This document shows, one piece after another, positions 235-6,724 of a DNA stretch of 28,446 bases (position 1 is its first letter; every line of letters starts with the position of its first letter). The notes under the pieces were generated by a model. It worked only from the letters and a program-made list of their open reading frames with translations. It was not told the DNA's origin and did no database searches. The stretch is from a virus (taxonomy: Duplodnaviria; Heunggongvirae; Uroviricota; Caudoviricetes): the IMG/VR virus record IMGVR_UViG_2622736468_000007. One strand, given 5' to 3'. The position numbers were made by a program, and so were the translations under genes.

Positions 235-613
235 TACCCCCCCTGAAAAATAATTTTTCAATGCATTAAAGAAATATCAACAACTACGTTATTCCGCAAC
301 AACCTACTTTTTTTACCATTTTTCCACTTTAACAACATTTTGCTCCACTTTTCCACGACCAAACAACTTAAAATCTGGTTGAAATAACATACAACACTAT
401 TATTCGTCTTCCTCGAGTCCGCCCGGAGTTCGAAAAACAAACCGAGTTAAAGCCATTTTTCAAAAAATCGATTTTTGGTTACACCAAAATTACGGGACTG
501 CATCCGAATTCGTTTATTTTCGAACGTATACATACAAATATGTACAATAATAAGCGAAATAATTTTTGGATATGCATTATGATATGTACACCAATTTCGT
601 ATAGAGTCTCACT

Positions 614-1204
614 ATGTCTCGAATTTTTGCTTACTGTCGGATATCAACGCTGGATCAGACCACCGAAAATCAACGCCGGGAAATCGAAAGTGCAGGTTTT
701 AAAATCAAACCTCAGCAAATAATCGAAGAACACATTAGCGGCTCAGCAGCAACCAGTGAGCGTCCTGGTTTTAACCGGTTGCTTGCTCGCCTGAAATGTG
801 GTGATCAATTGATTGTGACAAAACTGGATCGCCTTGGTTGTAATGCAATGGATATCAGGAAAACAGTGGAACAACTGACCGAAACAGGTATCAGAGTGCA
901 TTGCTTAGCATTGGGGGGCATTGACCTGACCAGTCCAACAGGGAAAATGATGATGCAAGTAATTTCAGCAGTCGCTGAATTTGAACGAGACCTTTTACTT
1001 GAACGCACTCATTCCGGGATAGTAAGAGCCCGGGGCGCAGGGAAACGTTTTGGTCGACCACCTGTGTTAAATGAAGAACAGAAACAGGTGGTATTCGAAC
1101 GAATTAAGTCAGGTGTAAGTATAAGTGCCATTGCCCGGGAATTCAAAACCTCGCGGCAAACCATTTTAAGAGCCAAAGCAAAACTTCAGACACCTGACAT
1201 ATAA
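614..1204 (+). CDS. pin: serine-recombinase DNA invertase (Pin/Gin/Hin family)
   Basis: 196 aa; N-terminal catalytic region (YCRISTLDQ...), C-terminal HTH ([15 protein letters not shown]); typical size and position next to tail-fibre genes. Confidence 0.9.
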
Positions 1205-1301
1205 AAAATAATCTTGGTGTGAGATGCTTTACGTCTTCCAAGCCCCCTTCCTTGCCGTAAATGGAAAGATACATCTAATTATAGAATTTATATGTTTTAC
1301 C

Positions 1302-1877
1302 CTACGGCAGTGCTGGCCATTCAATATCCTGTGAAGTTGACGTATCAACACGGTTCAGCAATACCCGATACTTTTTCCATGCTTCCAGCAACGAGATTTC
1401 TTCCTCCGTTGCAATTTCCAGATCTGCAGCATCCTGAAGCGGCGCAATATGCTCACTGGCTACCTGCATCAGGTTGTTTTTTGTTTCTTCCGCCTCCCGG
1501 ATCCGGAACAGTTTTTCTGCTTCCGTATCCTTCACCCAGGCTGTGCCGTTCCACTTCTGAAACTCCCCTTCCGGCGATAACCAGGTAACATTTTCCGGTA
1601 ACGGACCGAGTTCAGAAATAAATAACGCGTCGCCGGAAGCCACGTCATAAACCGTTTTACCCCGATGATCTTCAACGAGATGCCACGATGACTCATCACT
1701 GTTGAAAACAGCCACGAAGCCTGCCGGAATATCTGGCGGTGCAATATCGGTACTGTTTGCTGGCAGACCTGTATGAGGCGGAATATATGCATCACCTTCA
1801 CCAATAAATTCATTAGTTCCGGCCAGCAGATTATAAATTTTTATGGTCCGTGGTTGTTCACTCATTCTGAATGCCAT
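1302..1877 (-). CDS. tfa: tail fibre assembly protein (Tfa)
   Basis: 191 aa; lambdoid Tfa-like sequence; its ATG overlaps the stop of the upstream stf remnant (TAATG). Confidence 0.85.
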
Positions 1878-2975: not shown

Positions 2976-3200
2976 TCAGGGTGTCGATGAGTCCGGAAAG
3001 TGCCGGTACCCGGGATGCCCCCGTCGTCGTGTAATCAGAGCCGCAAGGCGGCGCTCCCACTCCTGCCGTCCCTGCCGGATCTCAGATAAGTTTTCCATGG
3101 TCATCTGCTGACCATTAAAGGTGACGGATTTTCCGTCCAGCACCGCCATTTCAGCTTCCGTATAACGCTGAATCATGGCTTCGATATCATTCTGGTTCAT
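2976..3200 (-). CDS. gpW-like head-tail joining protein (small, directly after terminase)
   Basis: 74-76 aa ORF whose ATG overlaps the terminase stop (ATGA) with GGAGG just upstream; position and size match lambda W; C-terminal RRRG motif. Confidence 0.45.
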   Translation of the reverse strand: MNQNDIEAMIQRYTEAEMAVLDGKSVTFNGQQMTMENLSEIRQGRQEWERRLAALITRRRGHPGYRHFPDSSTP

Positions 3201-5298
3201 AACCATCCTCCGGAAGTCAGCCAGGGGTTAACATCGTCAGTTACTGTTTTCTTCCGTTTTTGTTTTTTAACAGGCGTGGATACCGGTTCCGGTGTGGGTG
3301 ACGGTTCGGTACTGTCCGGGACACACTCCAGCCAGGTTTCCCGGCTCGCCCACTCCGGTGCATCCGGCCAGCGGATCTTTTCGTATCCATGCAGAATGAC
3401 CAGAGCCTCGGCATACACCATCAGGTCAAAAGCTTCGTTGGCACCGCGACCCGGCTTACTCCATTTCCCGTCACTGCTCCGCTCTTCATACGTCAGTTCG
3501 TCGTAAAACCAGCTCCCCAGCCAGTCAGGGAAATGCACATAGCCGGGACCTGGCGAGTCACGCCATAACGCGTTATTCACCCGGTCTTTCAGGGCATCCG
3601 TCTGAAGAAGCCAGAGCGGTACATCACCTGCGGCCTGCGCCCGTCGGCCCGTTCGTCCGGTGTTATCAGGGAATGTACGGGTGATCAGTTTTGCGCGCCG
3701 GATGCTGTCGCCCTTAAACAGGTAAATACGTTTACCAAGGCCATCACGACGGCAACGACGCCAGAATTTATAGGCATTATCAGTGACTCCGTCTTCACCG
3801 CCGGAGTCCACCGCCATTGCCATCAGTCGCATTTGTTGAGAAGGATCGGAGGCCAGCGGCCAGCTTTTATGAAAAACATCCGTCAGCAGGACATCCCAGT
3901 CTTCCGGATAGCTGGCCGGATCAATTCGCTGGCTCTCCCCGTCGCTGTCACCGCGCAATGACTGCGTGATGTTGTAACGATCAATAATCCAGCGTTCGCC
4001 ACGGCTGCCATAGCCCGTTACCTGAACCACAAAACGGCGATGACGTCCCGCCTGCACATCAACTGTCGCCACCAGGAAATTAACGCCATCCGGCACACTG
4101 CGGGAAGGAACTGGCTCTGCCCGCTGCTCAAGCAGTTCACTTTTTCGTTGCTCCATGCTGGCACGGGGAAGATAAGGTAATCCCCAGTCGGTATTGATAA
4201 CCGTCTTGAGTGTTTCTTCACTTCCGGTTGTCTCGTATTCCTGTTCTGCAGCAAGCAGTTTGTAAACGAGTTGCGAGAGTGTCTGGTAAGCAGCTGCCGG
4301 ACCCTCCATCCAGAATGACGCAATACGTGAGCGTCGGGGATCACCATAACGACTGCCATCCGCATTGATGGATTCACCATCCCGCAACCAGACCCCACGT
4401 CCGTTCAGCTCACGTTTTTGTTCAGGCATAATCCGTCCTGAACAGGAAGGACACTGAATATAAGCCGCCTCACTTGCCAGCACGGGATCGGCAATATCAC
4501 GGAAACCAGCAACCACATCGCCGCAGGGCTGAAAATACTCACCACAGTGTGGACAGGGCCAGTACCAGCGACGGCGATCGCCACGGTTATAGAGCGACAG
4601 TATCCCCGTGGTTGGTGGAGCCTCATGCGGTGAAGTCCGTCGCCATTTCACATCCTTCACATCCCTGCCGGGGAACTCTCCACCAGCGTCATACCACTGG
4701 ACATAAATGTGGTGGTACGTTTTGAGGCAAGAGAGAAGGCATCCTCCTCGCCATCAATATCTTCCGGAAAACGGTCATAATCCGTCAGCGCCACGCATTT
4801 ATAATCTGATGAGGACATGATATTGACTGACGGCCAGCCGATTTTCAGGTAGTTGCCAGCAAGGAATGTTCTGTCATAAACGTTGTTGTCATTTTTGTTC
4901 GGACTCAGGCGACTGACCACTTCCGGGCTGACGCGAAACGTTCTGGCAAGTCGTTTTTTGGAGTGTTCGCGGGCTTTTTCCTCCGTCATCTGAATGATCA
5001 GCATATCAGCAGGATCGCAAATCACGTTGTAAATCACCCAGCCGTCAATCAGGCCGATAGTCTTGCCAGTTCGTGCCGGGCCAACAAATATCACTGCGTC
5101 GTATTCACGCGAGGCCAGGCAGTTCATCGGCTCAATAACATACGGTGCCACCAGCGGATCCCACGGGACTGAGTTCCCGGCCCCCATGGGCACCCGCATA
5201 TACTGAGCAACGGCATCAGCAACCCGCATTCGTCTCGGTGCGCGAAGGATATAACCTGAATCGGTTCGTGCTGCCTTTGCGGTTTCCTGATTCAGCAT
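3197..5298 (-). pseudogene. terminase large subunit (GpA family) split into two frames (4657..5298 N-terminal ATPase part; 3197..4660 C-terminal part)
   Basis: N-terminal ORF carries Walker A (VIFVGPARTGKT); C-terminal ORF carries CPHCGEYF zinc-finger-like motif and nuclease region; frames change near 4657-4662, where the second ORF only has a GTG start overlapping the first ORF's TGA. Confidence 0.75.
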
Positions 5299-5510: not shown

Positions 5511-6401
5511 TCAGGCTGCCGGATCATCGTTTCCGATGGAAGCATAATAAGCTTTTTCTGCTTCTGCCGGAGGAGTATGGCCCAGCCTTTCCAGCAATCG
5601 TCGATTGTTATACCAGTCCACCCACGTGAGTGTGGCCAGCTCCACTTCTGTCCGGTTTTTCCAGCTCTTACGGTGTATTACCTCCGCTTTGTAAAGACCA
5701 TTGATGCTCTCCGCCATCGCGTTGTCATACGAGTCGCCTGTACTTCCTGTTGATGCCAGTAATCCGGCTTCCTTAAGCCGCTGTGTGTAGGCCAGCGATA
5801 CATACTGAGAACCTTTATCACTGTGATGGACCGTGCCGGACGGTCGACGGGCCCATAACGCCTGCTCCAGTGCATCCAGCACGAATGTCGTTTCCATGGA
5901 CGATGAGACCCGCCACCCCACGATGTATCCGGCAAACACATCAATGATGAACGCCACATAGACGAAGCCCTGCCATGTGCTGACGTAAGTAAAATCAGCC
6001 ACCCACAGCTGGTCAGGTCGTTCTGCCACGAACTGACGGTTTACGCGGTCGCCTGCGGCAACGGCTTTCCGGCTGATGGTCGTACGGACCTTTTTACCCC
6101 GGAGAACACCGGCAAGTCCCATAACCGCCATGAGACGTGCCACAGTGCATCTGGCCACTCTGATACCTTCCCGTAACAACTGACGCCAGACTTTACGCAC
6201 ACCGTATACCTTGTGATTTTCATCGTATACGCGCTGTATCTCTTTCTTCAGCCAGTCATCGCGCTGCGCACGGGCACTGCGTTTATCCGGATGATGTCGC
6301 TGTTGCTGACAGTGGTAATACGTTGACGGGGCAATATGCAGTTCGCTGCATAGCGGTCCGACCCCGTACTGCTCACGCAGCTTATCCAGCAGTGGCATCA
6401 T
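5511..6401 (-). CDS. IS3-family transposase OrfB (DDE catalytic domain)
   Basis: 296 aa; typical IS3-family integrase-core sequence. Confidence 0.9.
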
Positions 6402-6724
6402 TTTTTCCAGAGGCGGTCGAACTCCGCCTTCGCAAAATAAGCGGAAGCCTGGCGAAGGATATCGTTACTGCGGCGCAGTTCACGATTTTCACGCTCCAGC
6501 TCTTTCAGACGCTGACGTTCAGCGGTGGTGAGCCCTCCATCACCGCCCCCGGTATCCCGCTCATGCTGGCGAACCCAGACACGCAGAGTCTCCGGCGTAC
6601 AGCCAATCTTTGGAGCAATGGAACAAATTGTCGCCCATTGTGAGTCATATTCGCTCTGACTTTCCAGAACCATACGGACTGCCCGTTGACGGACTTCGGG
6701 GGAAAAACGAGTATTTTTAGTCAT
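6398..6724 (-). CDS. IS3-family transposase OrfA (HTH, leucine zipper)
   Basis: 108 aa [19 protein letters not shown]...; overlaps orfB start as expected for frameshift-fused OrfAB. Confidence 0.9.

Follow-up and report, generated by a model that had tools for sequence, protein, structure and literature searches.

The 28,446-nucleotide viral record IMGVR_UViG_2622736468_000007 (the window, meaning here the whole stretch of DNA that was analysed) contains pin, a gene of the PinQ/PinR type (614–1204, plus strand) that encodes a 196-aa small serine recombinase of resolvase type, and AT-rich palindromes just upstream of it. Positions 414–1247, 834 bp that take in both, are very likely a fossil non-autonomous element of the Tn3 family, composed of a left inverted repeat (IRL), a scar left by the loss of the transposase gene tnpA, a res site with three subsites, the resolvase gene and a right inverted repeat (IRR). 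This would reclassify pinQ and pinR, genes of E. coli K-12 that are annotated as DNA invertases, as the resolvase gene of a decayed mini-Tn3 that has relics of its own res, inverted repeats (IRs) and target duplication. It also means that the proper comparison for the palindromes is with res subsites and not with gix or pix, and a resolvase of a mini-Tn3 explains the lack of an invertible segment. The biology itself is modest, being one more transposon fossil in the accessory region of lambdoid phages.

The protein sequence of pin is by itself undecided between invertase and resolvase. It contains the Pfam domains Resolvase (PF00239, E=2.5e-36) and HTH_7 (PF02796, E=3.8e-11), and a search of NCBIfam returned no model at cut-off. 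Among solved structures Gin is the best match (E=3e-29), with gamma-delta and Tn3 resolvase at about 1e-22; because Gin and the resolvases both match, sequence is not decisive and it is the context that decides. The nearest non-phage homologues (58 to 85% amino-acid identity) are the TnpR proteins of full Tn3-family transposons, plasmid resolvases and the protein of a mini-element on ColV/IncF plasmids. Identity to the pin protein is 83% for the protein of the ColV mini-element and 73 to 78% for the TnpR proteins and plasmid resolvases that were sampled. A plasmid search provided annotated contexts for relatives at 58 to 78% amino-acid identity. The Citrobacter plasmid relative is the tnpR of a Tn3-family transposon, with tnpA divergent and an intergenic region of 159 bp, and two relatives, resolvases on Erwinia and Klebsiella plasmids, adjoin parA. 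The same arrangement with tnpA was seen in about 15 of 80 relative loci taken from a collection of species-representative genomes, where a divergent Tn3-family tnpA lies 159 to 160 bp upstream of a recombinase gene whose product has 58 to 81% amino-acid identity to that of pin. The window itself contains no tnpA, and tblastn with the Citrobacter TnpA gives no match in it. By its context, pin is the resolvase-type gene of a Tn3-family element and not a Gin/Hin/Pin-type invertase. An earlier, sequence-only reading of this DNA had taken pin for a Pin-type invertase that had lost its tail-fibre segment, a view not borne out by its closest relatives, which are TnpR and plasmid resolvases.

The upstream regions of 65 relatives, ranging from Enterobacterales to Methylomonas and Nitrosomonas, have a near-fixed order of elements before the ATG: site I, 14 bp, site II, TGCGT, TATAAT, TCGTACATCCATTTCGTACGG, about 10 bp and the start codon. 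The consensus of site I is TGTCCGAAACCG-AT-CGGTTTCGTACA (26 bp) and that of site II is TGTCCGAAAGTAAGTGAAATTAATTTCGGACA (32 bp). This is a res-type layout, with several dyads of differing spacing that overlap the recombinase promoter. A profile hidden Markov model built solely from the upstream regions of the non-prophage relatives matches the window at 500–609 (E=1.2e-12), without gaps and collinearly over sites I to III and the −10, and this is the only significant match in the window. Decayed copies of the subsites can be read off this alignment. Site I, the putative crossover subsite, lies at 501–526 (CATCCGAATTCG-TT-TATTTTCGAACG) in gapless alignment to the consensus, site II lies at 541–572 (TGTACAATAATAAGCGAAATAATTTTTGGATA, 32 bp, aligned to the consensus of the same length), and a site III-like region lies at 586–604 (GTACACCAATTTCGTATAG, aligned to the relatives' TCGTACATCCATTTCGTACGG). 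In the column of the near-invariant TATAAT of the 65 relatives the window has TATGAT (578–583, plus strand), the probable −10 of the pin promoter, which goes unlisted by a simple promoter scan because its −35 is weak.

Since the upstream profile matches 500–609, two of the elements noticed earlier, CGAATTCG and TTCGAACG, fall within site I and are its remains. The centre of site I appears to be the crossover point in this family, as suggested by where similarity breaks off in plasmids: about 390 IncF plasmids resemble the ColV element only as far as about the centre of site I, and in pJIE186-2 the similarity stops exactly there, between TGTCCGAAATCG and TA, a break that is the signature of resolvase-mediated exchange. 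The copy in pJIE186-2 (at about 3962–4251) is a sibling of about 290 bp with the structure IR-res-IR and no resolvase gene (TIME-like), and it lies between colicin immunity genes.

The ends of the element are recognisable on both sides of this module. Clean Tn21-like IRs of 38 bp (IRL, GGGGTCAGTTTGGAATTCGGAAAATAAACCATGTTAAG; IRR, CTTAGCGTGGGATATTTTCCGTTTTCCAAGCGGACCCC) enclose the module on ColV plasmids, and full-length relatives have GGGGTCCGCTTGGAAAACGGAAAATATCCYACGCTAAG at the tnpA end. The window has a degenerate Tn3-family IRL at 414–452 (plus strand, CGAGTCCGCCCGGAGTTCGAAAAACAAACCGAGTTAAAG), which is collinear with the ColV IRL and agrees with it at about 27 of 38 positions by our own count. 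Its degenerate IRR at 1213–1247 (minus strand, CTTGGTGTGAGATGCTTTACGTCTTCCAAGCCCCC, with the outer end GGGG on that strand) has a 3-nt deletion relative to the ColV IRR and agrees with it at about 28 of 35 positions, again by our own count. Just outside these relics stand identical copies of TTCCT, at 409–413 on the left and 1248–1252 on the right, as a target-site duplication of the 5-bp length usual for Tn3-family transposition. The duplication is also present in K-12 Qin, in phages 2H10, Tritos and Kati and in strain 2015C-3163; one haplotype has TTTCT instead on the left. From IRL to IRR the window and the ColV element align collinearly, the sequence outside the IRs is unrelated on either side, and a BLAST match of 82% identity to the ColV element runs to 1243, which is 4 nt short of the outer end of the IRR. 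Searching 57 kb with a profile of the family's IRs placed the best match at 1243–1219 (minus strand) and the third-best at 417–440 (plus strand), the two ends and the strands that the model calls for. On plasmids the element has itself been hit by other mobile DNA (locus L003, 3863–3900 and 4690–6020; locus L004, 1774–2778). TnAs1/Tn1721 is inserted at the inner edge of the left IR of the plasmid element, and IS4321, which targets Tn21-type IRs, is found in the right IR of the plasmid element or in the tnpA-end IR of a full-length transposon.

We propose that the element entered an ancestral lambdoid phage between ydfK and tfa, with duplication of the 5 bp TTCCT, and that it is now a passenger. 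As the duplication at both ends indicates, the neighbourhood of the tail-fibre genes would simply be the place of insertion.

Between the IRL and res lies a spacer of 48 bp (453–500) that holds the two AT-rich palindromes. The ColV mini-element has a homologous spacer of 62 bp (an alignment score matched by 0 of 1,000 shuffles), and the first bases of the window spacer, CCATTTTT, resemble the 3' end of tnpA in full-length relatives, CCTGTTTTTT. An origin from the 3' end of tnpA past the first dozen bases was considered and rejected, the alignment to full-length elements being no better than that of shuffles. The spacer is best seen as the scar of tnpA loss.

The palindromes are present as first described. 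All four elements lie 87–151 bp upstream of the ATG of pin (614) and consist of a perfect 14-bp palindrome, AAAAATCGATTTTT, at 463–476, the overlapping TTTTGGT-tac-ACCAAAA at 473–489 (7-bp arms and a 3-bp spacer), CGAATTCG at 505–512 and TTCGAACG at 519–526. The intergenic region 235–613 has a G+C content of 33.5%. Among 2,000 shuffles of this region that preserve dinucleotides, arms of 7 bp or more form a perfect palindrome in 5.5%, and arms of that length are found in 9 to 16% when spacers of up to 6 bp are allowed. The bare palindromes are marginally above chance for DNA this poor in G+C (P about 0.05). A stable hairpin at 455–495 was rejected, as the single-stranded DNA fold is unremarkable (z = −1.7, with 15 of 200 shuffles equally good), and Rfam finds no known RNA element over 235–613. 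The suggestion that the palindromes are relic recombination or regulatory sites can be kept for 501–526, which aligns to 65 relatives as res site I, and finds no functional support for 463–489. The latter, AAAAATCGATTTTT together with TTTTGGT-tac-ACCAAAA, is most likely functionless AT-rich sequence within the deletion scar.

A simpler account would make the palindromes merely part of the pin promoter or of a ydfK terminator and would deny that they were ever recombination sites. This can be given hardly any weight. Resolvase promoters do lie in res, and the region is both intergenic and AT-rich; however, the conserved −10 stands 50–115 bp downstream of the interval in question (463–527), consensus scans of that interval find neither a sigma-70-like promoter nor an intrinsic terminator, and the profile match through site I shows that 501–526 originated as a recombination site.

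In favour of reading pin as an invertase, the gene is annotated as one, adjoins tfa/stf and has Gin as its best match of solved structure, and one paper reports that the e14 P segment is inverted in trans in a PinQ-dependent way (PMC12529663). Under this reading, the palindromes would be relic crossover sites of the gix/hix/pix type, left behind when the tail-fibre segment was deleted. We consider it highly improbable. Neither the gix/hix/cix/pix consensus, TTNTCNNAAACCNNGGTTTNNGANAA, nor the e14 pix repeat has any match across the window with up to 3 mismatches, and the polarity of TTTTGGT...ACCAAAA is opposite to that of such sites. The comparison with gix, hix and pix proposed in the sequence-only reading therefore finds nothing; the sites are of res type, with the half-site TGTCCGAAACCG. 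The same reading had also remarked that there is no intact invertible segment, and this is borne out, as tfa is intact, stf is a remnant of about 230 bp, and the window contains no gix-, hix- or pix-like site anywhere. Phage 2H10 and the UTAK-6 prophage, where stf and tfa are full-length, have a single set of these genes and no inverted duplicate, and the nearest relatives of pin are, as described above, resolvases with res sites. A hin-like cassette, with pin between 12-nt inverted repeats at 481–492 and 1209–1220, was also considered. It was rejected as being at chance level, with four such 12-nt pairs of 92% identity in 1.2 kb, and a search of 5,426 complete E. coli genomes gave no instance of the junction that an inverted cassette would produce.

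In the ancestor of the fossil element, by analogy to Tn3 and gamma-delta, resolvase dimers would have occupied the subsites, all of them dyad-symmetric. The crossover for the resolution of cointegrates or multimers would have taken place at site I (12-2-12, 26 bp), and the accessory sites II and III, lying over the −35 and the −10/+1, would have allowed repression of the gene. Little of this seems to be left. With a weight matrix of 12 nt built from 260 half-sites of relatives, the half-sites of the ColV and Citrobacter elements score 16 to 21 bits in sites I and II, with 17 to 21 bits in site I, and 14 to 17 bits in site III. The window scores 4.2 and 5.9 bits for the half-sites of site I and 3.8 and 2.8 bits for those of site II, a loss of 12 to 15 bits per half-site. 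Its best-kept half-site, and the sole one near functional values, is at 592–603 in site III (12.4 bits). The sites of K-12 Qin are more decayed than those of the window, and more of the ancestral res bases are retained in the window haplotype than in K-12.

The recombinase has changed as well. Cys76 of pin (codon TGT) aligns with R71 of gamma-delta resolvase, and a single CGT-to-TGT change accounts for the substitution. All sampled phage and prophage copies of pin have DRLGC, including those of the functional phages 2H10, Tritos and Kati, and all 68 of 68 non-prophage relatives have DRLGR. Of the other catalytic residues, pin has Y7, R9, S11 and R73, and E39 replaces D36 across the whole subfamily; the complete catalytic set (Y6, R8, S10, D36, R68 and R71 in Tn3 numbering) is not found in pin. 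In Tn3 resolvase, R71 mutants give no recombination and cleave about 1000-fold more slowly, and they still bind site I (PMC2794168). The system looks recombinationally dead, because sites I and II are decayed, there is no partner res in the window and a Cys occupies the Arg71 position. We infer that the module no longer resolves anything. Autoregulation through the site III half-site beside the −10 may persist.

Several observations weigh against the fossil account, or at least against parts of it. The IR relics are individually weak (E values of 0.6 and 1.3 against the whole window), and they convince through their position, strand and collinearity only. An empty site, with the ydfK flank joined to the tfa flank, was found neither in the 5,426 E. 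coli genomes nor in viral contigs or metagenome contigs, so the proposed insertion into a phage ancestor is argued from the duplication and the homology boundaries. Thousands of genomes, and functional phages too, have an intact open reading frame of pin. Kirigo et al. reported 88% inversion of the e14 P segment under PinQ overproduction, up from about 30% (PMC12529663), which argues against a protein that is simply dead. On the other side, the same study found inversions in e14 only and in neither Qin nor rac. It also reports that a pinE deletion mutant was locked in one orientation and that PinQ and PinE are 38% identical (PMC12529663). The Cys at the Arg71 position in all sampled phage and prophage copies of pin sits uneasily with this 2025 report of PinQ as an active invertase. 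In view of the R71C substitution, the resolvase ancestry and the data of Kirigo et al., the effect of PinQ on e14 may be indirect.

The remaining points against the account concern the spacer palindromes, which might have been kept for a reason. K-12 Qin has both A463C and T476G, so that the 14-bp palindrome is preserved as CAAAATCGATTTTG. The spacers of the ColV element and pJIE186-2 have short dyads nearby, with AGCC..GGCT in ColV corresponding to AGTC..GACT in pJIE186-2, and the ColV sequence aligned to AAAT-CG-ATTT of the window is AAAG-GG-CTTT. The three co-changing site pairs in the spacer dyads hint at constraint. One explanation would be that 463–489 is a functional, lineage-specific protein-binding site within the fossil, serving either as an operator for PinQ, crippled in catalysis but able to bind DNA, or as a nucleation or bending site for a host nucleoid protein of the H-NS or IHF type. 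Measured against the shuffles, the palindrome comes close to the 5% tail, and the site lies 11 bp inside the IR, similar to the position just inside the ends at which IHF binds in gamma-delta. We nonetheless regard this explanation as unlikely. In the alignment, the dyad centres of the window stand about 3 nt away from those of ColV, and the palindromes are not positionally kept in the ColV relatives. In strain FDAARGOS_1267 (haplotype L095), T476A breaks both palindromes without compensation. There are effectively two common haplotypes among phages and prophages, which reduces the apparent covariation to one event with a chance of about 3% that was noticed post hoc. The fold of 455–495, as stated above, is unremarkable. 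The idea that the AT-rich palindromes are additional resolvase subsites was likewise rejected, as their halves score at or below 0 bits on the family half-site matrix, and the polarity of TTTTGG...CCAAAA is opposite to that of both res and gix sites (gix: AAACC-NN-GGTTT). The best match to an IHF core in the palindrome, judged by eye, has one core mismatch and is on one strand; it was discounted as too weak in DNA so AT-rich.

A broader version of the same thought is that PinQ/PinR is a domesticated, catalytically impaired R71C resolvase of a fossil mini-Tn3, kept by temperate lambdoid phages as a DNA-binding factor. Here 463–489, whose symmetry is retained in both main haplotypes, would have evolved anew into an operator to which this factor or a partner protein binds, and the effect on e14 would come from binding to the loosely similar pix half-sites, which biases PinE, and not from catalysis. 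We hold this to be improbable.

The fossil element can be compared to several known systems, among them Tn3 and gamma-delta (Tn1000). Their TnpR, like the pin protein, combines Resolvase and HTH_7 domains in a small serine recombinase, and their res, like the one described here, has three dyad subsites of unequal length directly upstream of the recombinase gene and over its promoter. The half-site of gamma-delta and Tn3 is TGTCYGAWAAT, to which the half-site TGTCCGAAA is very similar. Site I of Tn3 is 28 bp and site II 34 bp, compared to 26 bp (12-2-12) and 32 bp here. The full-length relatives of the element likewise have tnpA divergent with res between tnpA and tnpR, 38-bp IRs that start with GGGG, and a 5-bp duplication. 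In contrast to Tn3 and gamma-delta, this family has an IR sequence nearer to the Tn21 subgroup, and in the window copy tnpA is missing, sites I and II are decayed and a Cys stands at R71.

The fossil belongs with the Tn3-family derivatives that lack tnpA but carry res and tnpR, and its IncF siblings include the res-only TIME-like version. Other transposase-less elements with Tn3-type IRs also have 5-bp duplications, as here, and can be mobilised only in trans; some of these have a res site (e.g., IS101 and TIME244). Unlike them, the window element keeps its resolvase gene, is about 0.83 kb long as opposed to 0.2 to 0.3 kb, and resides in a phage genome; its IRs and res are so degenerate that they are unlikely to serve as substrates today.

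The invertases Gin, Hin, Cin and Pin (of e14) belong to the same small serine recombinase superfamily as pin and are also found near tail-fibre genes. The half-site cores are loosely alike when compared by eye (pix TCTCCCAAACC, and TGTCCGAAACC here), although the two cores here are 4 nt apart and not 2. Unlike the invertase systems, the window lacks paired 26-bp sites of the AAACC-NN-GGTTT kind, an invertible segment and any second, inverted copy of stf/tfa, and the relatives of pin have accessory subsites and tnpA or parA as neighbours. In the literature, no open-access paper was found that links pinQ or pinR to Tn3 or treats the IR sequence.

The locus corresponds to the ydfK-pin-tfa end of lambdoid prophages of the Qin/Rac type and is found in about 2,900 of the 5,426 complete E. 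coli genomes, as well as in intact prophages and in the functional phages 2H10, Tritos and Kati. In intact phages it lies in an accessory region, with a single full-length stf-tfa pair on one side and ydfK, dinI and int on the other, and the fibre genes have no inverted duplicate there. In the window, ydfK (1–234) is the first gene and is separated from pin by an AT-rich spacer of 379 bp (235–613); tfa (1302–1877, minus strand) is intact and convergent with pin, and the stf remnant of about 230 bp lies beyond it.

Some features of the intergenic region fall outside the element. A segment of 63 bp that directly follows the ydfK stop codon (235–297) is missing from K-12 Qin, and within it, at 244–260, is the palindrome TGAAAAATAATTTTTCA, whose 8-bp arms are separated by 1 bp. 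At 306–356, between ydfK and the left IR relic, ACTTTTTTTACCATTTTTCCAC and ACATTTTGCTCCACTTTTCCAC form a pair of imperfect direct repeats. Relative to K-12 Qin, pin and tfa are 99.3 to 99.7% identical (synonymous divergence, dS, of 0.015 in pin) and the non-coding stretch 298–613 is only about 88% identical, a pattern like that of a recombination mosaic whose breakpoint lies close to the start codon of pin.

Further into the window, the prophage bears signs of decay. The stf remnant abuts the 3' end of a tail gene with an Ig domain (2133–2951, within 1878–2951), which implies that the tail genes once separating the two were deleted. The gene for the large terminase is broken into a pair of overlapping open reading frames (3197–4660 and 4657–5298), and the prophage is defective because of it. 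An ALIL pseudoknot at 6327–6443 (minus strand) belongs to an inserted IS3-family element, for which it is the frameshift signal. Rfam also reports IS009, a candidate small RNA, at 1336–1534 (minus strand, 221 bits), entirely within the coding sequence of tfa. Two 5' untranslated regions of the cspA thermoregulator type, at 11977–12407 and 16200–16639 (both minus strand), are those of cspI- and cspB-like genes in the lysis and cold-shock module of Qin.

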